From NCBI GenBank assembly GCA_963804955.1, contig CAWDSQ010000030.1:256001-320000 (forward strand): a stretch of DNA of 64,000 bases, read 5' to 3'. The DNA comes from an uncultured delta proteobacterium. GTDB lineage: Bacteria > Desulfobacterota > WTBG01 > CAIYCZ01 > CAIRTM01. A model generated the notes under the pieces. The model was not told the origin of the DNA. It saw only the letters and a list, made by a program, of their open reading frames with translations, and did not search any database. The translations under genes were made by a program, and so were the position numbers. The first letter of the stretch is position 1. The number at the start of each line of letters is the position of its first letter. This document shows, piece after piece, positions 30,425-49,634 of this stretch.

Positions 30425-30542
30425 GGCGTTCTTTCTGTATGTTACGTATTGTGCAGGAGCGGTTTCAGCCGCGAAACAATCGCTGCTTCAACGTATGCAC
30501 CTGTCTAATTTTTCCAGACTAACTCACCTATCAGGGCTTTTT

Positions 30543-33012
30543 TTATTTTCGCAACGTTGCTGAAATTTTGTATTCATATAACGTATCTGCAGGTTCTGTC
30601 CCAACCACAGTGCTCCACGTGGTTTTTAATGAATCAATAGCATTTTCAAAAGATGATTTCCGGTTAAGCTCTAGCGGGTTTTTATTATCTCCATCCAAGA
30701 TATCTATTTGTGCATGAATAGCAAAGTTGCTCTTTTGATACGTATACGTGGTATGGCAGTCCCAACCACATTCAACAGGTATATTATAAGGATGCGTGGC
30801 GCAATTCGAATAACCATGAATAAGCAAGTGTTGAAAATAGTAAATATGAAGTATCGTACTTTGGGCAAATAGAGCATTCTCTCCATGAACACTTGTTGTG
30901 TATTCATCCTGCGAGCTGGGCTCCCCATCATAGGACGTATCGCAGTGATTATATCCACTGAGACTATATTTATACAAAGGCCCAAACAGCGTAGAGGCTT
31001 CATATTCGTCCGAATAAGTTCCTTCAGATGTACACTCTCCATCACATACACCAGCATCTGTATAGGCTGAAAGAGCAGTATGCTTCGCTGTGTATCCTGT
31101 TCTAATCCCGGATTTGTTATTACAGTTTAAATCATAGCCAAAATAAGCTTCCGACTCATAAGAACGACTATAATACGGGCAGCACTCTTCGCAGGAAGCT
31201 GAATTAGACACAAAAATATAGTTCATTAATGGGCTTCCTGAAAAATCAATAAGACCCGATTCCGTTGATTCTTCACAAGATGCAATACTTCCGGAACACC
31301 CGGGATCACCGAGATTACAAGTTAATATTCTATCAGGAAAAGATTGCACAGTATACAAATTACGCCCAAAATCACCTGTGAGGCTTTGCCATTCATTCAA
31401 ATTCTGCAAATCACATGGGAATATAATTTGAGATCCATCCGTTTTTTTGATATCTGCATAACTATCCTTGAGGGGATCCCAAACGAATGCCCTGGTCACA
31501 CCACGTCCTTCGATTTTCACGAGGGCATATTCTTTTTTGAATTCAACGTATTTGCTTACTGCTACGCCAGTATCTGTTTCCTGTCCGATAGTGCCATAAT
31601 AACCTACTTGTACAGTAAGATCATAAAAATCGGCCGGCACCTTGCTGCTTGAGAAAATAAAGGTTGCTTCCGTAGGGTTACCCGCATCAGTGCTGAGCTC
31701 TCCGGCCTCAGTATTTTCATCTGAAACAGCATATGAAAACTGTTCTTCCGCAGGATCGGTTTTGTATTTCGCAACGGCAAAAAGTTTGCCGCCGGGCATG
31801 ACTTCAATTTGGCCACTGTAAACGGTCGTATTGATTACTTTAGCTTTGATCTTTGTTATGCCACTGCTGTCACCGCCAATAATTGCAGGCTCTGTCACCT
31901 CAAGCTTCCCGCGGAAGAAGTAATCAAGTAGCCCTGCGGAGTAGCCCACCGCCTTCGGTAAAAGTTTTTGCGCGTAGTCTTTATGGCAATTATCATCAAG
32001 CGTAAATAGTTGCGACTCTGATACTAAAACAAGATGGTCGCTGGTAAGATATCGTACACCCATAAGACGATAACTGCTTTGCCCCTCTATTTTTCGCACA
32101 TAAATCAAATGATCCGTCACGCCGTCTTCTGCATCTACCGCTTCCGGATTAGCCCAGTTTATAGTGTTCAAGTCTGTATCAGCCCTACTAGGATGAGGAA
32201 ATCCAGGCTCATCAAGCAATCTGAATGCGCTTAAAAAATTGGCGGATGAATATTCTGCAAGCCCGGTATTAAAACTGTCGTTAATATCGTCGCCAGTGTA
32301 TAGGCCTGTATCCCAGAAAAACCTTGCCTCCATTGGCAAACCAAGATTGAAAACCGGCACTGAGCCGGATGCCATATAATTGTATAGCAAATCTCCCTGC
32401 GCTTGTCTTCTTTGCACATACTGTTCAAAATTATTTCCAAAATAGCTTGTAAAATTCAACCCGGTGCCGTTCTGAGGAAACAAATGGCCTTTGAAATCAT
32501 TGCGGGTATGAGCGGGAACTGCCATGTCCTGTATCATATGCATGACATAGCCCAGGCTTCTAAAAGTCTTATCAAAACCCCACGACCTGATATTGCTGCT
32601 TTGCGAAGTCAGTGCTTCACAATAATAAGTGCGTGCTTTCTTCCACGAATATTCATTGCTGTTCATATCGCCCAATGCCCATGCAAGAGCTGAACCGCCC
32701 CGGAAAATATCATTTAATCCAGTGTTATGTATCGGCTCATAAAAATGATTCAATGCGCGGCTGTCGGCATCTTCTCTTTCTGACCCATCAACTAGTATGC
32801 CAAGATCGTTTTTCCATACAGTGTCGCATTCAAACCTTCTTGTAAAACCAAGATAGGTCGTTAGATATTCAATTATTGTTGATTTGTTAGGAATAGTATA
32901 TTCTGTAATTTTTCGATGAGTCAGTTTGTCGTCCCATGCAAAGAGTATTATCGGCAAAACAAAATAAAATATACAATAACGAAATTATGATTATTTGCTT
33001 CTTTGCGAGCAT
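30543..33012 (-). CDS. Large secreted protein with N-terminal Zn phospholipase C/P1-nuclease-like domain and Cys-rich C-terminus
   Basis: AW...TH mature N-terminus, RALNHFY, GYVMHMIQDMAVPAHTRND; GGAG RBS and ATG at 33012 with frameshift in the signal peptide; low GC. Confidence 0.65.
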
Positions 33013-33020
33013 AAAAACTC

Positions 33021-33662
33021 CTATTTTTTTAATTTTCTTTCATTCCTTATATCATTAGACAGTTGATCATCTTCCTTTAAAAGAAAAGGCAATTCATAGT
33101 CTCTAAAAATATCATCGATTTTTATCGTACTAGGGGCATATTTATCCCAAATTCCAGAATCCAAGCACCTACTTAAAAATGATCTATGCTCAACATGCGG
33201 ATATTTAACATACGTATTCTTTTCTAAAAGTATTTTGGCTGCCTTATCAAACTTTTGGAGTTTAATAGTTCTTTGTTCATCATTAAACTCCGCAAGGTCA
33301 CGCATACCAGAAGAAAAATTAAACTTGCTGTCCCACAAAGCATATCCGGGTTTGTATATTGTTAGCCGTGGCCGTTTGGAGAAAATATACGTCAGCCAAA
33401 AATCTTTTATGTATATTCTGCCCTCTTTATCTGAAAAAGATTCCTTCGCTTTAACAAGCACCTCTGTGCCGCCTTCCCACCAAGCCCGCTTTGTCCAGCT
33501 ATGCTCCATCCACTGCGCAAGCGCCACTGCTCCCTCTATCGGCTGGCCTGTGTCATTATCTACAATGACGGCGGTCGGAACTTCCCTGGCTGATGCGCAT
33601 GCACTGAAAAACACACAAGCCAAACAGAGTAAAATGAAAGGTGCTAATAACGTTTTTTGCAT
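33021..33662 (-). CDS. Putative lipoprotein, paralog B
   Basis: Signal ending FSAC; IVDNDTGQPIEGA carboxypeptidase-regulatory-like start; IYKPGY. Confidence 0.8.
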   Translation of the reverse strand: MQKTLLAPFILLCLACVFFSACASAREVPTAVIVDNDTGQPIEGAVALAQWMEHSWTKRAWWEGGTEVLVKAKESFSDKEGRIYIKDFWLTYIFSKRPRLTIYKPGYALWDSKFNFSSGMRDLAEFNDEQRTIKLQKFDKAAKILLEKNTYVKYPHVEHRSFLSRCLDSGIWDKYAPSTIKIDDIFRDYELPFLLKEDDQLSNDIRNERKLKK

Positions 33663-33759
33663 GTCATTATCCTTTTAGATATTATTTTATTGACTGACTC
33701 CTTAAAACTTTGTGTTTTTCAAGACAATACACATCTGTCACTGTACAGCTTACAGGGCA

Positions 33760-33946
33760 GCAATCTTACATGTACCGTCTGTATCTTTATATGTAATACG
33801 TCAGAGTGATATTCTGACCGTCGATGTTAACCTTTGTTATTTATCTATGCGTTAGATTATCATCCTAAGCAAACAAGCTTCTGCAGAAAAAATTGGAAAT
33901 AAGAGCAAAACAAATAATAATTAAAATTTGGTTTTTATTTTATCAT
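33760..33946 (-). pseudogene. Deletion scar: 5' remnant of PLC-like gene fused to 3' remnant of the Ig-domain gene
   Basis: Minus strand reads NQILIIICFALISNFFCRSLFA*DDNLTHR*ITK then VNIDGQNITLTYYI. Confidence 0.8.
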
Positions 33947-33960
33947 TCAGCGACTCCTTT

Positions 33961-34596
33961 TTAACTTTCATCCTTTGGATCTCTTTCTTTTATTATAAAA
34001 GACAATTCATATTCTCTAAAAATATCGTCTATTTTTATATGATCAGGTGCATATTTATCGCGGATTCCTGAGTCTAAACATTCGTCTAAAAACGATTCAT
34101 GATAATCATGAACATATTTAAGTGTTTCTATTATGGGTGTATCATTTTTGAATTTATCCAAAAGCATTTCAGCTGCCCTATCAAATTTTTGCAGTTTAAT
34201 ATTTCTTTGTTCATTATTGAAATCAGCGGCGTCACGAACACCGAAATGAAAGCTTACATTACTGTCCCATAAAGCATATCCGGGTTTGTATATTGTTAGC
34301 CGTGGCCGTTTGGAGAAAATATACGTCCCCCAAAAATCTTCTATGTATATTTTGCCCTCTTTATCTGAAAAAGATTCCTTCGCTTTAACAAGGACCTCTG
34401 TGCCGCCTTCCCACCAAGCCCGCTTTGTCCAGCTATGCTCCATCCACTGCGCAAGCGCCACTGCTCCCTCTATCGGCTGGCCTGTGTCATTATCTACAAT
34501 GACGGCGGTTGGAACTTCCCTGGGTGATGCGCATGCACTGAAAAACACACAAGCCAAACAGAGTAAAATGAAAGGTGCGAATAACGTTTTTTGCAT
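33961..34596 (-). CDS. Putative lipoprotein, paralog A
   Basis: First about 110 aa nearly identical to paralog B; C-terminal half divergent. Confidence 0.8.
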   Translation of the reverse strand: MQKTLFAPFILLCLACVFFSACASPREVPTAVIVDNDTGQPIEGAVALAQWMEHSWTKRAWWEGGTEVLVKAKESFSDKEGKIYIEDFWGTYIFSKRPRLTIYKPGYALWDSNVSFHFGVRDAADFNNEQRNIKLQKFDRAAEMLLDKFKNDTPIIETLKYVHDYHESFLDECLDSGIRDKYAPDHIKIDDIFREYELSFIIKERDPKDES

Positions 34597-34676
34597 GTCA
34601 TTATCCCTTTAGATATTATTTTATTGACTGATTAGTTAAAGCTTTGTTTTTTTTTACACACCTTATGCAATACATC

Positions 34677-36622
34677 TTACCAGGTATCAATCTTCCACGT
34701 ACCGTCAGTATCTTTCACAAAGTATATGTAATAAGTTAGCGTTACATTCTGACCATCGATGTTATGAACACGCCTGATTCGGTATTTTGCCAGTCTATCC
34801 TGCACGTAAATCAGTTGGATATCCTGCATATTTGCAATTATGCCCGGTAATTGTGCAGAAAGGTCACTATAAACCTGATTATATGTTTCTTTCGAGGCGT
34901 TAGAGATAAACTTAAGAGCATTAGCAGTGTTGAGAGATGACAGCGCCTCCTTCATCGCACCCCACTTAACTCTCAACTTCGTATCAAACGCTGTTCGGTT
35001 ATCGGCCATGATGGCGATGTTGTCTGTGCGCAGCACGCGGGTTCCGTTATCCAGGGTTTCATTATCATCAACCGTGATGAAATACAGCCCCGGCTCCGCA
35101 ACACGGCGCTCGAATTTCATGGTTGTTTCGTTATCGCCACGGTTTTCTATTGATCCATTATCGGGGTCATAGCTGAATGAGTACCCCTGGCTGGAGTAGG
35201 TTTTTGCCAGACTCAATGTAAAGTCAAGCGGTGCCGTGCCCGAGACTATGCCCGATTCAGGGTTGCTTGAGAGGGTAAGATAATTGCTGGTGGTATCGGC
35301 AATTACCGAAACTGAATCTGTGGCATTGTCGCCAGAATCATTAAATGCATAGGCGGTTATGGTGCTGTTGTCGCCATTGCGCAGGGGCACATGGTTGGCT
35401 GCAAACACTCCATTATATACATGCGCGACCACGCCATTAACAACCACGCCGATATCATCGCCGGTAAACGCATCTCGATCAATGGTGCCCTGAACGAGCG
35501 TGTCGGGCCGCTCGATATGCGAGCCTTCCAGAGGCGAGGTTATCACAAGGTGGGCCGTGACCATAACACTCACAGCACTGCTTTCAGTGCCGCCGGGGCC
35601 TGCGGCAGTGATGGTGTAGGTTGTATTCATGCGCGGCGTTTTTTGAATGGAACCGTTAGCCGGATCAACACTGTCATTATCAGGCTGCAATACGCATGTG
35701 TCGACAATTCCAGTAGTGTTCCATGAAAGGGTAACAGTTTCGCCCTTATTGATACTGGTTCGGTCAGCCTGAAGGGTAACCGTTGGTTTCTGATAAACTG
35801 TAACAGTAACGCTTGCAGGATCGGATGTTCCGCCCGGGCCTGTGGCAGTTATGGTATAGTCGGTGGTATCTGACGGAGAAACGGGCATAGACCCCTCACG
35901 CCCAACCACGCCGATACCGGGTTGCATGGTGCAGGAATCAGCGTCAGTTGAACTCCATCTGAGCATTGCCTGTTCGCCGGTTTTAATAGCAGCCGGCTCT
36001 GCGTAGATAAAAACTGTGGGTTTCCTGAACTGCTGCTCACAGGCAGGCTGTCCGCATCCCCCACAGCCGGGCGTCGGGTCGCAGACATCACCAAGGCCAT
36101 CATGATCGGCATCAAGCTGGAGGGGATTGTAGATGTTCGGACAGTTATCAACGACATCAGCTATACTGTCATTGTCTGAATCGACCGGAGGCTGTTCACA
36201 GGCAGGCTGCCCGCAACCCCCACAGCCGGGCGTCGGGTCGCAGACATCACCCGGCCGTCATGATCGGCATCAAGCTGCAGGGGATTGTAAATGTTCGGGC
36301 AGTTATCACAGGCATTGTGTATGCCATCATGATCGGTATCTCCGCCATCAATAAGACCATCGCAATCATCATCAATGCCGTTGCATACTTCCGGAGCGCC
36401 GGGATGCACGGTGCTAGTATTGTCATTACAGTCGAGGTTATTGATCACATAACCATCAGGTGGTGAAAATTCATTGATTACAACCAAGGGATCTCCATAA
36501 CCGTCTGCATCGGCATCACGGTAATAGGGTGTTGCCGTTTGAGCATAAGCCTGCTGCAACAATGTGCAGGAAAAAATTATGGCAACTATGAACAGGGATT
36601 TTTGTGAAAGTTTTGAACGCAC
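34677..36622 (-). CDS. Secreted surface protein: MopE-like metal-binding motif, TSP3-like repeats, Ig/PKD-like repeats, C-terminal domain (frameshifted)
   Basis: YYRDADADGYG...DCND...PGAPEVCNGIDDDCDG; two DNCPNIYNPLQLDADHDG..DVCDPTPGCGGCGQPACE repeats; TTxYTITAxGPGGT repeats. Confidence 0.75.
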
Positions 36623-37025
36623 GAAGCCCCCCTTAATGAAAAAAATTTTAAACCTGGTGTTTCATCAAATACAATGAAGCTAAGTTGAAAAAAAATAGCA
36701 TTGAAAAATACAAATCACAATAAGCACAACTACTCAATTTTAACTGAGTATTTGTACTCATGCCGTTTGGATAATTTTGAGTTTGCGACTGACTTTTTTG
36801 TTAAAATCTTGAGGTGGGCAAGCAGGCAGGCTGTAGAGCGTACTCCCTCAAACTGCCCACACAACCGGAGGTATAGAGGATTTGCATCTCCACGGGGAGA
36901 AACGGCGTCGGACCTCAACTCCTGCCATCTACGCCTCGTTTTATCGCTTGTTTTGCAGTTGACAAATCCCGTTCTGGCGTTATACTTTTAATGGAAAATG
37001 TATAACACAGCAAGGGAGCAGCGAC

Positions 37026-37259
37026 ATGCATCTCACCGTTTCAAGCAAAGGCTGGGTTGTCATACCGGCGGAATTCCGCAAAAAATACCGGCTGCAGCCG
37101 GGATCAAAAGTCAGAATGGTCGACTATGGCGGCGTGCTTGCCGTAGTTCCCGAGCTGCAGGATGCCGTTGCGCAGGGCTATGGCATGCTGAAAGGCACGG
37201 GCTCACTGACACAAGCGCTTCTGCGGGAGCACCGCAAGGAATACCGGCGTGGCAAATAA
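37026..37259 (+). CDS. AbrB/MazE-family antitoxin
   Basis: VSSKGWVVIPAEFRKKYRL; overlaps PIN gene. Confidence 0.88.
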   Translation: MHLTVSSKGWVVIPAEFRKKYRLQPGSKVRMVDYGGVLAVVPELQDAVAQGYGMLKGTGSLTQALLREHRKEYRRGK

Positions 37260-37692
37260 GGAAAGCGCCTATGTGCTGGACAGCTTTGCCGCGCTGGCCT
37301 ATCTGGAAGGCGAACTTTCCGCTGATCGGGTTCTCGTGATTTTGCAGGAGGCTCGCGCGGGCCGGTGCCAGGTTTTCATGTCCCTTGTAAATCTGGGGGA
37401 AGTGCTCTATATCACGGAGCGGGAGCAGGGCCTCACCAAAGCGCAGGCGGCGCTGGCAGCTGTCGAGCAACTGCCCATAAAAATTCTTCCAGCATCACAG
37501 CAAGCCGTTTTCGCAGCTGCCCATATCAAGGCGCAGAACCGCGTTTCCTATGCCGATGCTTTTGCCATTGCCGCGGCTCAGGCCCTTGGCGCGGCAGTGG
37601 TCACCGGCGACCCGGAATTCAAACAGGTGAAAGACAGCGTCAGGATTGAATGGCTTGTCAAAAAATCCCGGTCAGTCAAATCCCCCAAATAA
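37249..37692 (+). CDS. vapC: VapC (PIN) toxin
   Basis: YVLDSFA, NLGEV, SYADAF, VTGDPEF. Confidence 0.9.
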   Translation: MANKESAYVLDSFAALAYLEGELSADRVLVILQEARAGRCQVFMSLVNLGEVLYITEREQGLTKAQAALAAVEQLPIKILPASQQAVFAAAHIKAQNRVSYADAFAIAAAQALGAAVVTGDPEFKQVKDSVRIEWLVKKSRSVKSPK

Positions 37693-37712
37693 TATCGAAA
37701 TACAAAATCCCA

Positions 37713-38155
37713 GCACCACCCGCTGCGCGCAAAATAAGTTTCAATCGTTTCAGTTGTTTGAACTGATCAAACCGATGAAACTGCTGAAACTGTTTGAACC
37801 GTTGGAACGATGAATATCGCCTCAGTGGTTCACCCTTCTTTACTTCCGCTTTCTGAATCCCGGCTTCTTTTTTATATTTGAATCTTGAATTTTAAATCTT
37901 TAATCTATCCTTCCTACCCTCTGTCTGTTCTGTAGTTTTGAATTTTGAATCCGGAATTTGAATCTGGAATCATTACTCCCTAACTCCTAACTCCCTAACT
38001 CCTAACTCCTAACTCCGAACCCCGAACTCTGAACTCTGAACTCTGAACTCTGGAACTCCGAACTCTGAACTCCGAACCCTGAACCCCGAACTCCGAACTC
38101 ATGACTCCGAACTAATGTCACATTAACCATTTGCCAATTAAAAACTGCTATTGTA
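37713..38155 (+). repeat. Junction repeat copy 1 (GCACCACCCGCTGCGC + tail + heptamer tract)
   Basis: Homologous to 39325-39570 and 42781-42940. Confidence 0.85.
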
Positions 38156-38196
38156 TGAATAACACAGTGAAATTTTAAATCCGCACGGGAGAGCAT

Positions 38197-39198
38197 ATGA
38201 AAATTACGTTAAACGAATTGACGGAGCTTACCGACAAAGCGCTGAAAAACTTCGGCTACACTGATGAGGAAATCCCCATCATTCGTCAGGCCCTTTTCTA
38301 TGCCCAGCTCAGGGGCAACAATCAGGGCGTGGTGAAGCTCATCGGTGCGGGCATGCCCAAAAGTCCCGATGCCGGAGAGATCGCCATTGTGAAGGAAACG
38401 CCCGTTTCGGCGCGCATCGACGGCAGCGGCAATCAGGCCATGGTCGTGATGAAAAAGGCCGTTACCGTGGCTCTTGCAAAAGCCAAACAGAGCGGCTTTG
38501 CCATTGTCGGTACATTCAATACGTCGACCTCCTCGGGCGCTGTTGGCAATTATGCCATGCAGCTGGCGCAGGAGGGATTTATCGGCCTGGTGTTCGGCCG
38601 CTCAACCGAGCGTGTTGCCATGTACGGCTCCTTCGAGCCGGTATTCGGCACAAATCCCATCGCCATTGCCATACCGTGCTCGCCCTCGCCGGTTGTGCTC
38701 GATATGTCGACGGCGGCAATTTCGTATTTCGGACTGGTTGAGGCAAAAACCGCCGGCAGGAAAATACCTGCTGATATGGCCTATGATGCCCGGGGCCGCG
38801 CCACGGACGATCCGGCTGCAGCCATACAGGGCGCTATCCGCTCTTTTGACCGAAGCTACAAAGGCTCGGGCCTTGCGCTCATGGCGGAAATTCTTGCCGG
38901 CCCGCTTGCGGGCGCGGCATTTGCGGGTATCGGCAACAGCAAGAAGAACTGGGGGCATCTGCTGATCGCCATTGATCCTGATCTGCTTGGCGACCGCGAC
39001 GAGTTCACGGGCAATGTGGCTGCCATGGCGGCAAAAATAAAATCGACCAAACGCCTGCCCGGTGTCGATGAGATTTTTGTGCCCGGCGAGCGGGAGGAGC
39101 AGCTTGCGCGGCAATGCCTTGAAAGCGGTGAAATCGATATTGAGGATAATCTGCTGAAGGGATTGCGCCTTGCCGCACAGCAGCCAGGCGAATGCTGA
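38197..39198 (+). CDS. Ldh_2-family (malate/L-lactate/sulfolactate, ComC-like) dehydrogenase
   Basis: AQLRGNNQG, GTNPIAIA, LDMST, YKGSGLALMAEIL, PGERE. Confidence 0.85.
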   Translation: MKITLNELTELTDKALKNFGYTDEEIPIIRQALFYAQLRGNNQGVVKLIGAGMPKSPDAGEIAIVKETPVSARIDGSGNQAMVVMKKAVTVALAKAKQSGFAIVGTFNTSTSSGAVGNYAMQLAQEGFIGLVFGRSTERVAMYGSFEPVFGTNPIAIAIPCSPSPVVLDMSTAAISYFGLVEAKTAGRKIPADMAYDARGRATDDPAAAIQGAIRSFDRSYKGSGLALMAEILAGPLAGAAFAGIGNSKKNWGHLLIAIDPDLLGDRDEFTGNVAAMAAKIKSTKRLPGVDEIFVPGEREEQLARQCLESGEIDIEDNLLKGLRLAAQQPGEC

Positions 39199-39324
39199 TT
39201 ATGCGTTTGCAGAATAAGCGAATGTTTCCGCTAATTAGGTCTCCAAAAAAAGGGTGCAAGTCTGCTCTTGGCTGATGCAAAGGTCAACGCGACGAGCCTC
39301 TTTCTGCCCCCGGATATATTTTTT

Positions 39325-39570
39325 GCACCACCCGCTGCGCGCAAAATAAGTTTTAATCGTTGTCAGTTGATGGAACTGATCAAACCGTATGAGACTGCGG
39401 AGACTGTTTGAACCGGTTGGAACGTTGAATATCGCCTCAGTGGTTCACCCTTCTTTACTTCCGCTTTCTGAATCCCGGCTTCTTTTTTATTATCTTGAAT
39501 CTTGAACTATCCTTCCTCCCCTCTGTCCGCTTGTAGATTTGAATTTTGAATCTGGAATCATTACCCCCGA
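39325..39570 (+). repeat. Junction repeat copy 2
   Basis: gcaccacccgctgcgcgcaaaataagttt...aatatcgcctcagtggttcacccttctttacttccgctttctgaatcccggcttc shared with copy 1. Confidence 0.85.
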
Positions 39571-39739
39571 TTCCGGAACCAGTATTCTGCTCTCCGCCTT
39601 CTTCAGTGAAACAAGCTTGCATGCTTGCTGGTTCCGTCTTGAATCTTGAATCCGGAATCTTGAACGTTCTTGTATTTTTAACCCGAACCCAGCACTCCGC
39701 CCTCCATGCCGCTGCAATGAATTCTCCAGGGTCAAATTA

Positions 39740-39820
39740 GTCAGCATATATATTGACTAATTTAATTTTATGTAAATAAATATATTGACAAAATGAAAAA
39801 AATGTCTATATATATTGACA
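39740..39820 (+). promoter_or_regulatory. Putative autoregulatory operators of the mobile mystery pair
   Basis: Three TATATTGAC repeats, two in near-palindromes (gtctatatatattgac), overlapping TTGACA-like boxes just before the GGAGG RBS. Confidence 0.55.
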
Positions 39821-39831
39821 GGAGGTGTTCA

Positions 39832-40293
39832 ATGAAAACAAATTGCAAACTCATTAGACAGGCAGCTTGACAGCACCCTGAAAAAGTTTCAGCCTTTGCG
39901 GGCTGCACCGATTCCGGCAAAGGGCTGGATCAGGGCAATACGTGATGCTCTGGGCATAACCGGCCAACAACTTGGTCATCGTCTGGGGCTGAGTAAACAG
40001 CGTGCCGCCTTCATCGAAAAGCAGGAGCTGGATGGCGCCGCTACTCTTAAAACCATGCGCAGGGTTGCAGAGGCGCTTGATTGCGTTTTCGTCTACGGTT
40101 TTGTACCGCGGACCAGCCTTGAAAAAACTGTGCTCAGCCAGGCGGAATCCGTTGCCGCCGAGGCAGCTTGGCAGGGCCGCTCATACAATGCGTCTTGAAG
40201 ATCAAAGCCGGGACATAGGGAGAATCAGGAGAGTCTCATTAACCTGACCCGAAAACTTGTCGACACACCCCCGAAGAATCTTGGGAGGAATAA
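39832..40293 (+). CDS. Mobile mystery protein A (HTH; frameshifted)
   Basis: PAKGWIRAIRDALG, TLKTMRRVAEALDCVFVYGFVP, HTMRLEDQ. Confidence 0.85.
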
Positions 40294-40882
40294 TGCCTGA
40301 TTTCAACTATCCTGAAGGAGCAACTCCCCTTAGCCCGGATGAAGCTGCAGGTCTGCTTCTTACGCATATAACAACTCGCGGTGAGCTGGATAGATGGGAG
40401 CAGGACACTATCATTGAAGCCCAGGTTTGGCTTGACGGAAAAAAACCGAAAGACTTACTGAATGAGCTGTTTCTGAAAAATCTTCACAAGAGGATGTTCT
40501 CCAGAGTCTGGAAATGGGCGGGGCAGTATCGTCAAGCAAATAAAAATCTCGGCATTGACTGCAGCAGATACCCGTGAGCATCAGAAATCTGTTCGATGAT
40601 GCAAAGCTCTGGATTGAGGTTCGACACGACTCATCCGATGAAATTGCCGTTCGTTTTCACCACCGTCTCGTTGCAATTCACCCCTTTTCAAACGGCAATG
40701 GCCGCCACGCACGGCTTATGACGGATCTGCTGCTTGAAAACATTTTGGACGTTAAACGGTTCACCTGGGGCAGCGGTCAGGAGCTTTCAAAGTCCGGCGA
40801 GACCAGAGGCACATACATTGCCGCACTTCGTGAAGCAGACACGGGGAACTATAAACCCCTGCTAAAATTTGCCCGGTCATAA
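40293..40882 (+). CDS. Mobile mystery protein B (Fic domain; frameshift near 40565)
   Basis: PEGATPL, WKWAGQYR, HPFSNGNGRHAR Fic motif. Confidence 0.88.
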
Positions 40883-40905
40883 GCAGTAGAAAAATACACC
40901 GCCCG

Positions 40906-42621
40906 CTATTGCCCGTACTGGCTGCCCGGCTGCGCCCAGTCTTTTGCGGAATCGCACACACGGCTTTTTTCCGCAAAAATAGCCTTGATTTCATTGTCTC
41001 CTGCGGTCGAAAGCTGCTCTTCGGCCGTGCTTATTTCGGTTGATCTCTTCCCGCGCTTCCACCAGGGCCCTCCCCGGCGGATATAGGTCTGCGTATCGCC
41101 ATAGAACATGCTTGCGCTCATCCCGTAGGTGTTCGGGTCCTCATAATTGGTCCACGGCTCAACCCCCTCTTCCTCCTCATAGCGGATCATATCGTGGTCC
41201 TGATCCGTGGCCACGACTTTCTCGACGAGGAATTTATGGCGCAGCTCATGGGCGACAATGGCGGCCACGGCCTCTATTCCTTCCACGCGATCCCGGGTGA
41301 GCGTGAGCGAGTGCGTTCCGGTCTTGTCGGTCAGGGGCTGGTTCATGGGGCCGAAAGCATAGCTTGCTGCTGTTTTGCCGATGGTCAGGGTGTGGCTTGT
41401 CCAGTCGTAGTAGCCGCCCTTATCGGAGTCTTCATAGGTGAACTGGTCAAGCTTGGGCACCGGCCCCTGCTTCCAGTAATAATACCAGTTTGCGCTTTTC
41501 GTTCCGCCGGAGTCAGGGTGGTCCGTGCCGTCCCGCTCGAAGAATACCCGGAAATCCTTTGAGTTGCTCAGCTCCAGGTCGGGAATGCTGGCGGTGATTG
41601 TCTTTGATCCGAAATCGTCATTGCCCTCAGGAAGCTTCTTGTACGTGACCACCACTTTCGACACACCCGTTACAGGGTTATTGGTGACTTTGATCTCCCT
41701 GTCCGACTCATTGCCGATTGCCGGGACATCCCAGTGCACCTGGTCTGCCATGTTCGCGGGAGTTACTTTGGCCTTGGCGAAGAATACAAGCCTGCCGTTA
41801 TGGAAAACAAGATCGGTCTCAGGGCCCGGCTTTATAACGAACTGCTGCTTCAGCTTTATAATCTCAAGAGTGGCGTCCTGTTTGTCGCCGGGCACCAGGG
41901 TCCAGTTGAAGGGGACTTGAAGGTTCTCTTGGCCGTAAAAAGATGCGTTAACATTGGTAATGCTGCCCTTGAGGGTCAGGCCTGATGCCGGGAGCGGCGT
42001 ATAATAATCGGTTTCAAAAGGGCCGAAGCCGACGATGCTCGTGTCTGTTTCGCCTGAGCAGGTATCGTTTAAATTGGAGTCGAACGTGACATTCTGTGTC
42101 ACAAAATGATAGGTGTTCAGCGTTTCCCCCTCGTAATAATTTATATCGAGAAAATAGTAATCAGCCACCGGCTCCATGGGTTGAAGCTCGGAGCTTTCTT
42201 CGGTTTCGGTCCATGAAATGCATCCGCCATCGCTGCGTTCGCATTCCACATTGATGGTGTCCTGGTATGAGCCCGTGAGCGTGCCTTCTCCTGACCAGGT
42301 GGCGACCATAGTATCGGGAGGGCTGATCGTATGATCCAGATTAAGGGTGCATTGTCCGTTAACCGTCCAGTTTCGCGTTTGCGTATAGGCGCAGTAATAA
42401 TTGTCACCCGTAAACGAGTACTCTGAAACCGTGCTGGGCAGGCTCGCATTGAACGTGCCCTTCCAGCTTTTTACCAGGGCAAAGCGCCTGGGGCCGGTGG
42501 ACTGGGCGCTTGCCATTGAGCTGCCGCAGAGGAGAATAAGCGAGACGATAATACATACTCTTACTCCGGCTTGATACGTCCGTGCGCTTTGTATTCTTTG
42601 TTTGAAGGTAAAGTAATTCAT
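40906..42621 (-). CDS. Secreted hypothetical protein with HExxH motif
   Basis: N-terminal signal; beta-rich body; AHELRH near the C-terminus. Confidence 0.7.
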   Translation of the reverse strand: MNYFTFKQRIQSARTYQAGVRVCIIVSLILLCGSSMASAQSTGPRRFALVKSWKGTFNASLPSTVSEYSFTGDNYYCAYTQTRNWTVNGQCTLNLDHTISPPDTMVATWSGEGTLTGSYQDTINVECERSDGGCISWTETEESSELQPMEPVADYYFLDINYYEGETLNTYHFVTQNVTFDSNLNDTCSGETDTSIVGFGPFETDYYTPLPASGLTLKGSITNVNASFYGQENLQVPFNWTLVPGDKQDATLEIIKLKQQFVIKPGPETDLVFHNGRLVFFAKAKVTPANMADQVHWDVPAIGNESDREIKVTNNPVTGVSKVVVTYKKLPEGNDDFGSKTITASIPDLELSNSKDFRVFFERDGTDHPDSGGTKSANWYYYWKQGPVPKLDQFTYEDSDKGGYYDWTSHTLTIGKTAASYAFGPMNQPLTDKTGTHSLTLTRDRVEGIEAVAAIVAHELRHKFLVEKVVATDQDHDMIRYEEEEGVEPWTNYEDPNTYGMSASMFYGDTQTYIRRGGPWWKRGKRSTEISTAEEQLSTAGDNEIKAIFAEKSRVCDSAKDWAQPGSQYGQ

Positions 42622-42780
42622 ACGCCCTTTTCTTTCTTGATAGTTATACCAGCATGTTTAAAGTTTTTTCCCGGTTCATTATAAGACCTTTGGAAAAATA
42701 ATCAACCTTTCTGATAGCTCCACAGGCGAGACTTTGCGCAAAGGTTTCCGTCCCGGCTTGCCTGCCACCTTATGTTTTTT

Positions 42781-42940
42781 GCACCACCCGCTGCGCTCGC
42801 ATCTTAAACTCCGCACTCTGTCCGCTCTGTAGTTTTGAATCCTGAATTTTGAATCTGGAATCGATTACCCCCGAACTCTGAACTCATGATTCCGAACTAA
42901 TGGCACATTAACCATTTGAATATTAAAAACAATCATTGTA
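42781..42940 (+). repeat. Junction repeat copy 3 (internally deleted)
   Basis: gcaccacccgctgcgc then gaactcatgattccgaactaatggcacattaaccatttg as in copy 1. Confidence 0.8.
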
Positions 42941-43154
42941 TAAAAATAATGCTGTTGTTGAGTTTCATAAAAATACTGCTTCAAGGGGGTTCTTCGGCAT
43001 GTCTTTTCATATTACATTACATCGATTTTATTGTGGTGGTGATAAGGTCGCAGGTTGCGCGACGCGCATGTATTCGCGTGCCGGCTTATTTGAGAAAAAC
43101 AGTCGGAAAAAATTAAACTCATGAAAAATACATCAAAATTGATGTTGAAAAAGA

Positions 43155-43508
43155 ATGGAATTCATCGTAGAGTTTTATGATACGGCGGATGGATGCTGCC
43201 CGGTTCGGGAATTTCTGGACGGGCTGAAAGCCAGCGATCCGGGCGATTTTGCGGCGGTGCTGGCCGGGCTGGCAAAACTTCGCAACAGGCAGTATCATCG
43301 CGAACCGCTGTCAAAAGCTATTGGCGACGGGCTTTTTGAACTGCGCCATGTGGGAAAACTCAACACCCGGGTGCTCTGGTTTTTTGTGAAAGATCAACGA
43401 ATTATTGCCGTACATGGTATCCGGAATAAGAGGCAGGCCATACCGGCCCGAGACAGGCAAATCGCCCTCGATCGGATGCGCGACTGGCGGAAACGGATGA
43501 AAATATGA
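43155..43508 (+). CDS. RelE/ParE-family (HigB/Gp49-like) toxin
   Basis: VEFY...PVREFL, PLSKAIGDGLFELR, RVLWFF, AVHG. Confidence 0.85.
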   Translation: MEFIVEFYDTADGCCPVREFLDGLKASDPGDFAAVLAGLAKLRNRQYHREPLSKAIGDGLFELRHVGKLNTRVLWFFVKDQRIIAVHGIRNKRQAIPARDRQIALDRMRDWRKRMKI

Positions 43509-43858
43509 AAAAAACAAACTTTGACCGCTATCTGCAGGAGCAGATGAAGGACGAGGCATTTGCCGCGCGCTTTGAGCAGGCAGGGCAGGCCTGGGATGTG
43601 GCGCTGCAGATTGCTTCTCTTCGCAGGCAGGCCGGGCTTTCGCAAAAAGAACTTGCCAAAGCTCTCAATACTTCTCAGCAGCAGGTAAGCCGCCTTGAGT
43701 CACCATCCTATGAAGGTCATTCGCTCAGCATGTTGCGCCGCGTCGCCGATGTTCTGCATACCAGGGTGCGTATCGTGTTTGAGCCTGTAAAAAAGCGGCA
43801 GGCCGGAATCCATGCCGCCGAGGCAGCCGCGCCGTATCGCGCCCGGCGAAGCAAATAG
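43505..43858 (+). CDS. HTH (HigA-like) antitoxin
   Basis: LRRQAGLSQKELAKALNTSQQQVSRLES; ATGA overlap with toxin. Confidence 0.85.
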   Translation: MKKTNFDRYLQEQMKDEAFAARFEQAGQAWDVALQIASLRRQAGLSQKELAKALNTSQQQVSRLESPSYEGHSLSMLRRVADVLHTRVRIVFEPVKKRQAGIHAAEAAAPYRARRSK

Positions 43859-44275
43859 GAAGAAATAAGAAATAAAAAGCTGGAATGAAGAAACATGAAT
43901 ATGATTTGAGGGATAGCTCGTAGGGTGCGCCGTGCGCACCGATATTCTCTGAATTCTGCCTTCTATTTTTCTGCCCACCGAACCCCGACCCCTGTACCCT
44001 GTTTTTCTGCGCTACGCCCTCTGAAAGAAAAGGGGTCAGGTCTACGTTTGACTTATGAACGCGGAGAGGTGTCGATGGACTAATCTATATTTTGATATTT
44101 CTGTATGCTGGAAAATAAAGGGGGCAGCAGCGCCCTTAACTAAAAAATTTATCTAGATGAGCTGACAAAACACGACAGCAAACCTTGATATCTTTTTGCT
44201 GTAAAGACGAAGCCCTTGAAGACAGCGCCAATCTCCCGGCCCCCGATAGAGCTGCAGAGTAACAGAGGTGGAAAA

Positions 44276-44581
44276 TTATTTACAACAAGGATTGAAGTTT
44301 TTATCTTTTAAATAGCGATAACCATCCGGGCATTTAATGCAGCGCTTGAGAGGCGACTTGGTGTAAAAATACCCTTGTGGGCATTTTACACATGTATTTC
44401 TCTCCGAAAGAGTATAGGTCGATGGGCAACTGCCGTCTGAACTAACTTTCATCTCACTTTCTATTGAAACCTCACTGAACCCCACACAGTCTTCTGCGCA
44501 ATAGGTTTGCGGTGTTTGGGTTACTACAAAAAAAGTCACTGTTAACAATACAATTAAGAAAAAAAACACGTACTTTTTCAT
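44276..44581 (-). CDS. Small Cys-rich secreted hypothetical protein
   Basis: Signal peptide; repeated CxKCPxGY; GAGGA RBS. Confidence 0.65.
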   Translation of the reverse strand: MKKYVFFFLIVLLTVTFFVVTQTPQTYCAEDCVGFSEVSIESEMKVSSDGSCPSTYTLSERNTCVKCPQGYFYTKSPLKRCIKCPDGYRYLKDKNFNPCCK

Positions 44582-44620
44582 GATATATCCTCGTAAAAAG
44601 AAAAGTTAAATTTCTGCACC

Positions 44621-44823
44621 TGGAGCATTTATCTAAATCTTGTAACCGAAAATCAAAAAACAGATGAGAGCGTTAGCTGTATGACAGCATTTGTTGTCAT
44701 TCCCGCATGACGGGAATCCCTTTTGGTGTGCTGAAAAATGATTCCGGACAAGCCGATGACCAGGGTCTGTTTCGCTCGCCAACACATCAATAATGGTTAT
44801 AGTAAAATGTTAAATGCTCTAAG
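44621..44823. mobile_element. MITE-like element, copy 2
   Basis: Homologous to 5584-5787; ends gagcattt...aaatgctct. Confidence 0.7.
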
Positions 44824-44884
44824 GAAGAAATAGTTTATATATACTTCCCTGCTCATTTTTTGAATAAATAGGTACAGAATTTGG

Positions 44885-44966
44885 ACGCGCCATCTTTGAT
44901 GCCTGCCTCGTCAAACCCTTTTTTCTCAGGATGCCGCTGTCGAACTGGCTGCAGGGGCTGCCGTCG
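44885..44966 (-). pseudogene. Degenerate duplicate of the queC 3' end
   Basis: Matches 46079-46160; encodes [13 protein letters not shown]. Confidence 0.8.
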
Positions 44967-44979
44967 GGAGGCTTTGCCG

Positions 44980-45496
44980 CTATCCCTCCAGCGACGGTTT
45001 TTCATGCACAAAAAACCATTGCGCTGGATCTTCCAGATACAGCAGCGTTTCTCTGAGCGACCTGAAATGTTCAAGCTCCATGGCAGCCATGCGGGCGAAA
45101 AAAAATTTTTCTTCGGGAGATTCTCCCGCACGTACTCAGGTTTTCATACAGGGTATACCCCTTTGTTTCAAAAGCAATGGCAACCTTGAGGGCATCGTGA
45201 TCATCCGGATCAACCGGCGACTTGTCGGTGGTTGATCGCGCAATATCAAACAGATGCTGCATGGCAACGGTATCGCTGCTGTCTGAGGTTATGTATTCAG
45301 GCCACGTTCCCCTGGCGGTAAGCTCTCCATGAATTCTCTGCAGGCGTTCAAAATGTTCCTGCTCATCGTCGGCAATGCGGGCAAACATTCCTTTAGCAAC
45401 GGGGTTTTTCGCCTTGCTGCTGTGCAGCAGATAAAAATTCCGCTCATGAATTTCGTTTTCAAGAGCGAGGTCAATCGACTTGAATTCGTTTTTCAT
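44980..45496 (-). CDS. Ferritin-like/rubrerythrin-family protein (frameshift near 45125)
   Basis: ALENEIHERNFY, DEQEH, AIAFETKG, ELEH...DPAQWFFVHEKPSLEG*. Confidence 0.82.
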
Positions 45497-45724
45497 AGGC
45501 ACCTCTTGGTAAAAAAAACAGTGTTAGCTCCTTCAGGGCAGGAAATCCTCATCATTGCACATGCCATTCCCGTTTGGTTAGTTTGTGAATTATGACAGGT
45601 ATATAAAGATTTGATGTAGCATATTTTTCCAAGCATTCAACAGGTAATCGAACCAGGTTCTTCGGCCGGGTGATTTTACGAATGCATTCACTTCGGGTTC
45701 AGCCCCGCGGCTTACCATATATCC

Positions 45725-45792
45725 CTTCATTCCGGCGAAAGCCGGAATCCAGTAAAAAGCAGACTGGATGCCGGATCAAGTCCGGCATGACG
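45725..45792. repeat. REP/RPE-like double hairpin
   Basis: cattccggcgaaagccggaatccag...ctggatgccggatcaagtccggcatgac. Confidence 0.65.
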
Positions 45793-46067
45793 AAACAACT
45801 TTAATACGCCGCTGCTTGCGGCAGGGGGGAGTAAAAACAGACAGGAGGCAGAAATAAGAAAGGCTGTAGGCTGTTAGGCTGTCGGCGGAAGGAACAGGAA
45901 AGGCTGCCAGGCGTAAAAACAGTAGTCAGTATCGCAGAAGTCAGAAAAGCGAGAAGCGTGGATCGAAAGGCAGGGAGCAAAAAGACGACAGTAGTGAGTA
46001 GGGATTTTGTAGGGGCGTTCGGCTGAACGCCCAGGGTCTGCGGATGAATCAACCCCCGCAGGGAGCA

Positions 46068-46763
46068 TCAGACTTTATACGCGCCATCCTTGATGCCTGC
46101 CTCGTCAAACCCTTTTTTCCGAAGGATGCAGCTGTCGCACCGGCCGCAGGGGCTGCCGCCAGGCAGCGGGTCGTAGCAGCTGTGGGTCAGGCTGTAGTCG
46201 ACGCCCAGGGCTGCGCCTGCTGTGATGATCTCGGCTTTGGTCATGTGCAGAAGGGGGGCATGAATCTGTATTTTTGTGGTTCCTTCCACGCCGGCTTTTG
46301 TTGCAAGGTTTGCCATGGCTTCAAAGGCAGCTATGTAGTCGGGCCTGCAGTCGGGGTAGCCCGAATAGTCCAGGGCATTGACGCCGATGAAGATATCGGC
46401 AGCGCCGAGAACCTCGGCCCAGGCAAGGGCATAGGACAAAAAGATGGTGTTGCGCGCAGGCACATAGGTGACGGGAATCTCTCCCTCCATGTCCTTTTGG
46501 GACCTGCCTTTGGGCACATCGATAGCGTCGGTGAGGGCGGAGCCGCCGATTTTGTCCAGATCGAGGTTCAGCACGAGGTGCTGGGCAACATTGAAAAAAC
46601 GCGAAACCCTTTCCGCTGCTGCAATTTCAATGTCGTGCCGCTGGCCGTAGCGGAAGCTGAGGCTGTAGATTTCGTAGCCCTGTTTTTTTGCCATGGCCAT
46701 GACGGTTGTGGAATCAACGCCGCCGCTGCACAGCACAACGGCGCGGGTGGTTTGATGAGGCAT
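46068..46763 (-). CDS. queC: 7-cyano-7-deazaguanine synthase
   Basis: SGGVDS, YGQRH, TYVPARN, GYPDCRP, SCY, CGRCDSC. Confidence 0.96.
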
Positions 46764-47104
46764 GGCTGTCTCCTTTAACAAATGTTCACCGCCCGTAGCG
46801 TGCGCTTGAGACGCAGAGAACGCTGAGTGCTTATTTTTTCCCTTTCTGCTGAGAGGGCAGAAAGCGAAAAGCAATCTCCATGGCAAGGCGGGAAGACTTT
46901 TATGTTTCGCCCTGCTCTGCGAACCATAAAAAATCCCTACTCCTACTGCGTCTTTGTGCTCCTTGCCTTTCGATTCTGAATTCTGGGGTTCGCCAACGTT
47001 TCTCCGCCTACAGCCTAACAGTCTATAGATTACGCCTTTCGCTGTTCCTACCGCCTACAGTCGAACAGCCTAATGCCTTTCTTGCATCTGACTTCTGCCC
47101 CGGC

Positions 47105-48479
47105 CTATTTCACCAGGGCAGTGTGAATGGCCAGCAGCGCCTTGTCGGCATCCTCGTCATCGATGACGCAGGAGATATTGATCTCCGATGCGCCCTGGGA
47201 GATCATTTCGATATTGACGCCCTCGGCGGCCAGCACTGAAAACATTTTTCCCGCAAGCCCCACGCAGTGCTTCTGCCCGCGGCCCACAAGGCTGACAATA
47301 GCCATATCCTTGTTGACGGAAACGCGGCCCAGATGCTCCAGGTCCGCCATGGCTGCGGCAAGGCGGTCGGTTTTTTCAACGGTGACCGACACATTGACCT
47401 CGGAGGTCGAGATCAGGTCGATGACGATGCCGTGCTTTTCGAAAACATTGAACACCTTGGCCATGAAGCCGTAGGCCATGAGCATGCGGTTGGAGTTGAT
47501 GTTGACGACCGTGATGCCCCGCTTGGCTGTTATTGCCGTGGCAGGCTTGGCCGGAGACAGGCTGTCGGCGCTGGGGTCGACAATGGTGCCGGGCAGCTCG
47601 GGCTTGAAGGTGTTTTTAATGTGGATCGGTATGCCCACCCGCACGACCTGCTCCATGGTGAACGGGTGAATGACCTCGGAGCCGTAGTAGGTCAGCTCGG
47701 CTGCTTCTTCGGGCGTGATGGCCGGCAGTACCACGGCACCCGGCACCTTGCGCGGGTCGGCGGAGAAAACGCCATCGACTTCTTTCCATATCTGCAGCTC
47801 CCGCGCGCCGATGGCTGCCGCGGCAAGGGCTGCGGTCAGGTCGGTATAGCCCCGGCCGATGCTGTTGATGATGCCCCCGGGCACAAAGCCGAAATAGCCG
47901 GTGAGCACGGCCACCTTGTGGCCGCAGGCCTCGATGCGGCTGCGCAGACGGGTCTGCGTGTAGGCGTAGAAATCCTGGCCCGCCTCCTTAAACTTTTTTT
48001 GGATGATCAGCGAGAGGTCCACAAATTCGGCATCGATGCCCATGCTGTTGAGAAGGCCCGCAAAGATACAGGCCGAGAGCTTCTCTCCCATGCCGATGAC
48101 GACATCCTGCGACCGCGTGGACATTTCGCCGATAATGCTGATGGCTCCGAGAAACGATTTAAGCCCCCGCAGCTCTTCTTTGATTTGCTCGCTGACCTGC
48201 TCGCCGCAGCTCTCCGGTCATGAGCTCGTTGACAGCTTCCAGATGATGCTCTTCGATGGAATCGATGATGCCGTGAAAGTCTTTTTTTGCAAGGGCCGCA
48301 TCGGCTGCCTCGATGAGCTTGCTTGTGGTGCCCTCGGCTTTCACATAGCTGCTCATGGCCGACAGGGCCAGCACAACCCGGTCGCTTTTCAGGCTGTTTT
48401 TAACAATATCGGCAACCCCGCGCATGCGGTCGGCCTTGCCAAGGCTCGTTCCGCCGAATTTCTGAACAATGTACTTCAT
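47105..48479 (-). CDS. lysC: Aspartate kinase (frameshift near 48190)
   Basis: VQKFGGTS, GRGYTD, WKEVDG, ADPR, two ACT domains. Confidence 0.92.
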
Positions 48480-48640
48480 GGTGCTCCTTTCCGGACTGTT
48501 GAAAAATAGATTTAACTATATAAGTTTACGTGTGTTTTTTTGCAAGCTAAATTTTTGCCGGGAGAGCGGTTTTATGCTTTTTCATCACCTGCCGCGCGCG
48601 CGCAGGGGAAGGTTTAAATTGTTCACATTTAGTATTCTAA

Positions 48641-49472
<832 letters not shown>

Positions 49473-49634
49473 ATGTAAAGAGCCTGTAGGCGTTTAGGCC
49501 GCAGGCTGTAGCAGAGGGCAAAGGCGAAAGACAAGAAAGAAGCCGGTCCGCCGCAGCGTAGAGAATTTAGAATGTGAACCCTGATACAGGTGTTTTCAAT
49601 GAATGATTTAATAACCAGCTAAGGAGGATCTGAA

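Follow-up and report, generated by a model that had tools for sequence, protein, structure and literature searches.

We analyzed a stretch of 64,000 nucleotides (nt) from the genome of an uncultured delta proteobacterium (assembly GCA_963804955.1, contig CAWDSQ010000030.1, positions 256,001 to 320,000; hereafter the window), in which a 16-mer, GCACCACCCGCTGCGC, recurs between the genes of a 7-kb islet rich in toxin-antitoxin pairs. This 16-mer and its variants, which we call the tag, belong to a family of intergenic elements that is dispersed beside housekeeping genes; the filler between genes turns over within fixed borders, and breaks in homology fall at the ends of the elements. Probably, the tag family is a repeat family resembling repetitive extragenic palindromic (REP) sequences and miniature inverted-repeat transposable elements (MITEs), with a conserved end that acts as a rearrangement hotspot or preferred breakpoint. 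The best-supported placement, judged from sequence comparison, would be that of an undescribed member of this REP/MITE kind of repeat. Coordinates in the region under study (36,623-44,275) count along the whole window; its genome (4,264,429 bases, 36 contigs) is referred to as G000 and its contig as C30, and relatives and other genomes carry other G numbers. All features are collected in the table below.

A scan of the window with up to two mismatches found the 16-mer at 37713, 39325 and 42781, always on the forward strand, just as a sequence-only reading of this DNA had stated. The expectation in shuffled windows was 0.04, and none of 100 shuffles reached three matches. Across the whole genome, with up to one mismatch, the same three sites were found and none besides, and a reversed control gave zero. 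The shorter motif CACCRCCCGCT has four exact matches, all forward and spanning less than 5.1 kb; the partial tag at 40897-40907 overlaps the stop codon of an open reading frame (ORF) of 571 amino acids (aa). The shared tails were also much as that reading had described them. Copies 1 and 2, for which about 250 bp had been claimed, align over 248 nt from the 16-mer onward at 87% identity, 75 nt of this at 99%. Copies 1 and 3 have start and end parts in common, namely the 16-mer, a block at 37919-37993 and 42816-42885 (80%) and another at 38084-38159 and 42869-42944 (86%). These comparisons rest on BLAST and a repeat search, since MAFFT put copy 3 in the wrong place.

The tails consist of element bodies and of 7-mer and 9-mer tandem repeats that are found genome-wide. 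The body of copies 1 and 2, here called B-type, is about 120 nt long and made up of 9-mer repeats and hairpins; after it come a spacer, a block resembling the 3' arm of the element (CTCTGTCYGYTCTGTAG) and arrays of TTGAATY and GAACTCY heptamers, in this order. The heptamer portions match at least 10 other contigs of the genome, and three 160-nt tandem blocks of like kind lie at C30:144800-145260. Copy 3 resembles copy 1 without its body, and copy 2 resembles a truncated copy 1. As single-stranded DNA (ssDNA), a B-type element of the relative G002 folds with z = -5.44; the values for the three local copies, of which the first is strongly negative, are given in the table. On their left side, copies 2 and 3 have a T-run in common and are otherwise unrelated (122 of 500 shuffles matched or beat the local alignment of these flanks), and elements of the family usually have a T-run at this position. 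We also considered the AT-rich block at 38100-38159 as a promoter and rejected it: the scan gave no forward site there, and only a 9/12 site at 42923-42950.

In relatives of the same family, seven of 12 sites of the 16-mer (up to one mismatch) continue as T[CTA]GAG and CACAGAG-type repeats. The site C7:199477 in G000 has the same continuation, TCGAG and then CACAGAG-type heptads, and as a query it returned about 10 similar stretches of about 180 nt each, which can be aligned end to end. Their aligned order is TTCACCGCCCGCTTCGCTCGAG-ACGCAGAGAACGCAGAG, a first hairpin (CCCTTTCTGC-TGAGAGG-GCAGAAAGGG), a second hairpin (TTTTATTTTTCGC-CCTCTCA-GCGAAAAATAAAA) and TTCTCTGCGCCCTCTGCGNCTCTGCGGTGAA. A standard member runs from TTCACCRCCCGCTKCGCTCGAG through (CGCAGAG)n and the two hairpins to (CTCTGCG)n-GTGAA, and the family, with TTCACCRCCCGCTKCGCTCGAG and CTCTGCGGTGAA as its limits, is 100-300 nt long, palindromic and non-coding. 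Inverted repeats (TTCACCGC ... GCGGTGAA) terminate the standard copies; in copies 1-3 the ends are weak and barely complementary. The consensus folds into a long closing stem and two hairpins with 45 pairs, five of them with compensatory changes; the tag-like segment is outside the paired part, on its 5' side. A search of Rfam with positions 30000-50000 of the window, which hold four copies, gave no family and only a chance match to an internal ribosome entry site (IRES; E 0.23). A small ORF that looks GIY-YIG-nuclease-like by eye (C7:198950-199300, L196) adjoins the standard element at C7:199301-199483.

With a profile built from six copies, nhmmer found 15 loci in G000, one of them inside the window. 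All 15 loci, together with three to four local copies, are intergenic, and the 46 neighbouring proteins scanned include UbiA, lycopene cyclase, AMP-binding enzyme, ketoacyl synthases and thioesterase, as well as DeaD, topoisomerase VI-A, ABC-F, PilZ, queC and aspartokinase. Given the continuation of the tag, the copies alignable end to end and the ordinary genes beside them, we read the 16-mer as a local variant of the 5' terminus of the dispersed family. The sequence-only reading had stated that a REP dispersed through the genome and unrelated to cargo boundaries would speak against its idea; this is largely what was found, at about 15 further loci beside housekeeping genes, and the exact 16-mer itself is local.

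The family also extends to other genomes, for which we scanned records of one genome per species. The 20-mer CACCRCCCGCTKCGCTCGAG matched at least 121 stretches, mostly from Desulfobacterales, 'delta proteobacterium' and Thermodesulfobacteriota metagenome-assembled genomes, Desulfosarcina and Desulfuromonas; a few titles from other phyla are perhaps chance or coding matches. A CTSYGYGGTGA end lies within 300 nt downstream in 30 of 122 cases. Between genomes the element ends are kept and the bodies differ, and within the taxonomic family to which the window's genome belongs the copies are dispersed across many contigs. Tandem arrays made purely of elements, free of genes, occur with periods of 227 nt (G044:C29; G001:C29 is listed with identical coordinates), 167 nt and about 125 nt. 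In the 7.6-Mb genome G049, 16 successive copies stand on one strand among small ORFs, and seven more form a 167-nt tandem array. The 46-kb region concerned (G049:C1:1916000-1960000, L229-L231) has 27 tag-like sites with up to three mismatches to the 20-mer, placed between small ORFs; two subfamilies are seen there, with the ends TCACCGC...GCGGTGA and TCTCGC...GCGAGA, and four RAYT-like genes (for REP-associated tyrosine transposase) lie 50-140 kb off.

Comparison of orthologous spacers showed that both element ends, and not the tag alone, mark the breaks. In the queC-aspartokinase spacer, a standard element is present in G000, a B-type element with a clear 3' end, CTCTGTGGTGAA (G002:C243:137-262), in G002 and an unrelated palindromic filler in G001, and in G006 and G013 the spacer is a mere 15-25 nt or so. 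The left flank and CACCGCCCGT are common to G000 and G002, which then differ wholly; both elements begin 20-25 nt from the queC start codon. In the spacer between a ketoacyl synthase (KAS) gene and a thioesterase gene on contig C21, three different fillers with identical gene-side borders are present in G000, G003 and G004. G003 has retained hairpin 1 and the 3' arm and has lost the tag-bearing arm, and therefore the replacement is not tied to the tag. The G000 element carries, inside its second hairpin, another repeat of about 130 nt that is itself found on many contigs. At a locus on C11, the element is inherited in G001 (90% over 2.3 kb), and the homology of G002 and G004 ends at its 3' end.

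A gene-sized difference was found within the islet. Compared with G004:C401, G000 carries an additional 1,885 bases, which include the 571-aa gene and run from just after ...CACCGCCCGCT (40907) to ...CACCACCCGCT (42792). The left flank in G004 matches the left junction in 60 of 70 columns, and its right flank (GCGCTCGCATCTTAA...) matches the right junction in 24 of 31; in G004 the mobile mystery B gene is followed by the same tag and TCGCATCTTAA, without the 571-aa segment. Among metagenome contigs, CCCGCTGCGCTCGCATCTTAA was found in one stretch (L212), which is arranged like G004:C401 and is therefore not independent, and a 29-letter degenerate pattern covering both tail types was found in none. 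Read evidence was drawn from Logan contigs; of the words sampled from 36800-44100, any one run contains a share of 0.14 at most. We set aside a joint from 42804 to 43980 in run X5, one side of which is 23 nt, and joints between heptamer blocks, which we regard as repeat noise.

Based on these results, we propose that each tag is the conserved 5' end of a local copy of a hairpin-forming intergenic repeat, and that in this lineage the gaps between genes would be filled by such elements along with rapidly changing 7-mer and 9-mer tandem repeats. Within the islet, a block of this filler some 450 bp long may have been copied, truncated and internally shortened, and the copied filler would now separate self-sufficient modules: VapBC, Ldh_2, mobile mystery A/B, the 571-aa gene and Gp49 with its helix-turn-helix (HTH) partner. 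We infer that the elements spread as units by means of a trans-acting enzyme, for which a single-strand enzyme of the HUH/RAYT type is our guess, and that short-homology or illegitimate recombination at the terminus may delete, insert or swap the DNA between copies. The terminus is suggested as the point of recombination because it is the longest identical stretch that co-oriented copies share, and this would give the locus its cassette-like look. This gives a reference point for judging cassette-like arrays in genomes of Desulfobacterota, much of whose intergenic DNA would consist of shared palindromic elements and short tandem repeats; with such a shared vocabulary, a repeated junction alone is no evidence of a capture platform. 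The ends of this family coincide with synteny breaks, with filler swaps among congeners and with at least one gene-sized insertion.

Several observations weigh against this interpretation. The profile of the standard element does not recover the three local copies, because they share only the terminus with standard members, about 16-22 nt being in common, and the exact 16-mer is restricted to a 5-kb stretch of its genome. No mobilizing enzyme, target-site duplication or autonomous partner was found. The 1,885-bp insertion is bounded by 11-bp copies of the tag (10/11 identical), and one Logan contig from a soil-metagenome run (X2) passes from the end of vapC through 16 letters matching 37695-37712 directly to 42781 and onward; it thus has the tag with the tail of copy 3 in place of that of copy 1, as exchange at the tag would be expected to produce (depth 5.3, shorter side 57 nt). 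Sixteen bp is short for RecA-type recombination. Tags may also be regional and co-oriented: in the 9.6-Mb genome of Desulfosarcina variabilis all 11 exact tags lie inside 96 kb, among exopolysaccharide, regulator and tRNA-synthetase genes; in G049, 13 of 14 lie inside 34 kb; and in G043 all seven stand on one strand in an islet of HicAB, HEPN-nucleotidyltransferase (NT) and PIN genes.

A rival explanation is the site-specific accretion of cassettes, in which the tag would be the crossover core for an enzyme encoded elsewhere, and circular 'T-run-tag-tail A' segments would have been integrated serially into a basal 'L1-tag-tail B'. The junctions form a mosaic (copy 1, L1-tag-tail A; copy 2, T-run-tag-tail A; the partial tag at 40897, the mobile mystery end-tag-X; copy 3, T-run-tag-tail B) in the order expected from such integration. 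The basal arrangement is seen in the X2 contig, G004 has the mobile mystery end, tag and tail B minus the 571-aa segment, and the queC elements of G000 and G002 are alike up to the tag and then diverge. In other genomes, co-oriented arrays of tags are found between HicAB, HEPN/NT, PIN, MazF, Fic and HepT/MNT modules. However, we consider this explanation rather unlikely, for the evidence on the enzyme, on the modules and on the elements themselves speaks against it.

With respect to the enzyme, the absence of a recombinase from the window, which the sequence-only reading had noted, was borne out: a scan of its 63 ORFs of at least 100 aa gave no match to recombinase or transposase families. An association with tyrosine recombinases, which that reading had suggested testing, did not emerge: PF00589 has six matches in G000 and none on C30, and no tyrosine recombinase was found within about 150 kb of the D. 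variabilis tag cluster. Serine recombinases or resolvases gave no match in G000. A search for IS91/Y2_Tnp gave no match, but its control was likewise zero in all its 14 genomes, and so this negative carries no weight. The flanks of the elements are T-rich and showed no constant target duplication, and no insertion sequence (IS) with these ends was noticed. IS110-like elements were considered as a link and rejected, because none of their three 1.57-kb copies is inserted in a tag.

With respect to the modules, each one occurs in a differing context in genomes of the same genus, and homology stops at the borders of the operon itself. Cargo order is thus not fixed in relatives, as the idea of accretion at one locus had assumed. 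However, the tag is missing at the borders of 10 of 12 module copies in relatives, namely from VapBC in three of three (G003:C4, G002:C436 and G004:C132, where homology starts at 36945-36952 and ends at 37665-37690), from Ldh_2 in four of four and from Gp49-HTH in three of three, which stand alone (G001:C91, G002:C231, G015:C40); among the module copies examined, it follows only mobile mystery B in G004 and is absent in G001:C413. The Ldh_2 gene adjoins the region of a Band_7 gene in G010, is near Band_7 in G001 and G000, and has one and the same downstream neighbour in G010 and G016, so that the Ldh_2-Band_7 synteny is kept in four genomes (G000, G001, G010 and G016) of two genera. On the strength of this conserved neighbourhood, we take Ldh_2 to be resident and not captured, with filler and modules apparently built up around it. 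The interval from Ldh_2 to Gp49 differs between G001 and G000 at 39227-43124, and no tags lie at these bounds.

With respect to the elements, copies 2 and 3 share only the T-run in their left flanks, the tag-bearing arm is the very part that was replaced at C21, standard copies are complete and two-ended beside housekeeping genes, and the variant evidence comes from one relative and one short contig. Thus, the claim that cargo accreted at this locus stood in part: order is not fixed, two variants break exactly at the tag, and co-oriented arrays exist elsewhere. It did not stand for Ldh_2, if resident, nor for the 571-aa gene, which is inverted and, like VapBC, has a promoter-like site of its own. 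A new gene-capture platform, as had been suggested, is possible and is not the best reading, the tag being the terminus of a dispersed family.

A related proposal is that the terminus (CACCRCCCGCT|GCGC) is the cleavage and joining site of a trans-acting enzyme, for instance a single-strand transposase of the HUH/RAYT type reading the adjacent hairpins; we put this forward tentatively, as a doubtful case. If it were true, DNA between two co-oriented elements would be excisable and could be reinserted at another element, and toxin-antitoxin and other small modules could be shuffled on chromosomes across Desulfobacterota with no integrase and no attC. A terminus serving as the cut site would provide a route for shuffling defence and toxin-antitoxin genes distinct from integrons. 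G000 has a RAYT-like gene (G000:C30:145773-146471, 232 aa; NF047646, 79.9 bits against a cut-off of 80), 150 kb from the locus, which is flanked by its own 16-nt inverted repeat, AAAGGGGACGGTTCTA, and not by the element. RAYT-like genes are multi-copy in relatives. Such a gene was found in 34 of 41 relatives, and the tag (up to one mismatch) also in 34 of 41, figures that say nothing on co-occurrence, given the background matches of the reversed control and the relatedness of the genomes; in a single case, G043, a tag lies 42 nt downstream of a RAYT-like ORF. The RAYT-like gene of G000 stands in a second islet (G000:C30:143880-147000, L198), which also contains a paralogue of Gp49-HTH, the three 160-nt tandem filler blocks, ORF6N fragments and a HigA-like HTH gene.

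We also considered the possibility of purely local duplication, in which an ancestral Ldh_2 spacer was copied by unequal crossing-over or replication slippage, the genes arrived by unrelated events and the tag has no role. The three copies are closest to one another, a 450-bp block (37703-38160) could have given rise to copy 2 by truncation and to copy 3 by internal deletion, the spacers are full of slippage-prone 7-mer and 9-mer arrays, and tandem blocks are seen again in the second islet. However, the breaks at the tag in the G004 and X2 variants would remain unexplained, as would the conservation of the tag across many genomes despite differing bodies, and we regard duplication alone as improbable. 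Equally hard to credit is a cis element selected for function and not mobility, that is, a transcribed structured leader or trailer (insulator, terminator, mRNA stabilizer or small RNA): although the hairpins are conserved with some compensatory changes, and at both queC and the C21 KAS gene the element runs up to the ribosome-binding site, with its end 18-25 nt from the start codon, the Rfam search of 30000-50000 gave no family, orientation to neighbouring genes varies, copies 2 and 3 fold no better than shuffles, and orthologous spacers exist without the element.

Table. Positions of tags, elements, filler and genes (window coordinates unless a contig is named)
Feature	Position	Strand	Remarks
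VapBC module	36949-37692	+	promoter-like site 36959-36986; vapB (MazE/AbrB) 37026-37259; vapC (PIN) 37249-37692; Pfam, NCBIfam
Tag copy 1 (16-mer)	37713-37728	+	21 nt 3' of the vapC stop
B-type element, copy 1	37711-37833	+	tag, 9-mer repeats, hairpins; degenerate 3' end CTCAGTGGTTCA; ssDNA fold z = -3.76
Spacer shared with copy 2 (partly up to 99%), 3'-arm-like block CTCTGTCTGTTCTGTAG, TTGAATY heptamers	37834-37980	+	block and heptamers in all copies
Heptamer tandem array (AACTCCT / GAACTCY)	37982-38109	+	similar arrays on at least 10 other contigs of G000
AT-rich block 5' of Ldh_2	38084-38159	+	duplicate at 42869-42944 (86%); partly conserved upstream of Ldh_2 in G001
Ldh_2-family dehydrogenase	38197-39198	+	Pfam 7.4e-79
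Tag copy 2, B-type element and shared spacer	39325-39568	+	degenerate hairpins; fold z = -0.12
Mobile mystery protein A	39896-40198	+	TIGR02612, 129.1 bits
Mobile mystery protein B (Fic-like), two ORFs	40257-40577 and 40574-40882	+	TIGR02613, profile positions 1-84 and 89-186
Partial tag CACCGCCCGCT (fourth copy)	40897-40907	+	15 nt past the mobile mystery B stop; left junction of the 1,885-bp insertion relative to G004
571-aa ORF	40906-42621	-	without family match; own promoter-like site 42705-42678 (-), 10/12
Tag copy 3, TCGCATCTTAAAC, 3'-arm-like block, heptamers, AT-rich block	42781-42944	+	internally short form; no fold, z = +1.45
Gp49 (HigB-like) toxin and HTH antitoxin	43155-43858	+	toxin 43155-43508; antitoxin 43505-43858; Pfam
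Standard family member between queC and the aspartokinase gene	46792-46961	+	nhmmer 3.4e-43; fold z = -3.46
queC-aspartokinase spacers	46740-47115; G002:C243:100-340; L214 (G001:C119); L220 (G006:C108); L225 (G013:C114)
C21 spacer	G000:C21:29340-29680 (L244:2242-2582); L245:2200-2420; L247:1800-1960

The genes of the islet agree with the cargo named in the sequence-only reading: AbrB-VapC is a MazE/AbrB-PIN pair, Ldh_2 and mobile mystery A/B (TIGR02612 and TIGR02613) hold, and the RelE-HTH pair is Gp49-HTH. The promoter-like site of VapBC is TTGACA-16-TATACT (11/12), and the 571-aa protein, called secreted in that reading, has a hydrophobic N-terminus as read by eye. No tRNA genes were found within the window. 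The split of mobile mystery B near 40574 is a frameshift or a sequencing error; in one Logan contig a single G is inserted at 40560 and at 40746. Upstream of mobile mystery A (39730-39830), the word ATATATTGAC occurs three times (39750, 39781 and 39810) and also precedes the G004 copy, and TCAGCATATATATTGACTAAT makes a partial palindrome round the first of these, with an operator-like look. Before the islet, two near-identical paralogous ORFs stand in tandem (33021-33662 and 33961-34596; 213 and 211 aa) with lipoprotein-like N-termini, and the region of a MopE-motif gene contains 158-nt direct repeats (36032-36340). Positions 30445-38120, which include 30.5-36.6 kb, have no counterpart in G001:C91.

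Finally, we compared the family with known systems. No description of it was found in the literature searched, and in the passages of PMC12306157 consulted, Desulfotalea is a row in a table of counts. REP sequences, the REPINs formed from them and RAYT transposases are treated by Bertels and Rainey 2011 (PMC3116915) and in Mob Genet Elements 2011 (PMC3337134). As in those systems, the present repeats are short, extragenic, palindromic, non-coding and hairpin-forming, occur in many copies and also in tandem clusters, and G000 has a RAYT-like gene. However, the present elements are longer (100-300 nt), their bodies are variable, a conserved terminus of 16-20 nt lies outside the stem, and the RAYT-like gene of G000 is not flanked by the repeats. 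MITEs include the Correia/NEMIS elements and the cyanobacterial Nezha. Terminal inverted repeats, a length below 300 nt, the lack of an ORF and presence or absence at orthologous spacers are shared with MITEs; unlike them, the family has shown neither a target-site duplication nor an autonomous IS with the same ends, and its left arm has an asymmetric insert, the tag.

Integron attC sites are imperfect hairpins of 57-141 nt with R''(RYYYAAC)/R'(GTTRRRY) ends, and their cassettes are mostly promoterless, co-oriented and single-gene; in clusters of attC sites lacking integron-integrases (CALIN arrays), the integrase is absent by definition. The locus resembles attC or CALIN arrays in having co-oriented repeat sites between small units, often toxin-antitoxin ones, with no integrase in view. 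It differs in that no IntI is nearby, no R''/R' boxes are visible by eye and the tag lies outside the hairpin; moreover, the units have one or two genes, promoter-like sites of their own and either orientation, and the elements also stand singly beside housekeeping genes. Compared with attachment (att) cores, the tags flank three units, and the empty-type forms are represented by a single relative, G004, and by the short X2 contig. The pdif modules of Acinetobacter plasmids, bounded by 28-bp XerC/XerD sites in alternating inverted orientation, are described in PMC6449649 and PMC13141974. The islet is like these in having discrete accessory units that include toxin-antitoxin pairs, those of pdif being moved between replicons by a trans-acting housekeeping enzyme. 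Unlike pdif sites, the four tags are direct repeats on a chromosome, and the 16-mer has no visible dif-like dyad. The TTGAATY and GAACTCY arrays, dispersed in the genome, are like heptanucleotide tandem repeats such as the cyanobacterial short tandemly repeated repetitive (STRR) sequences, and form a variable filler only, distinct from the tag.

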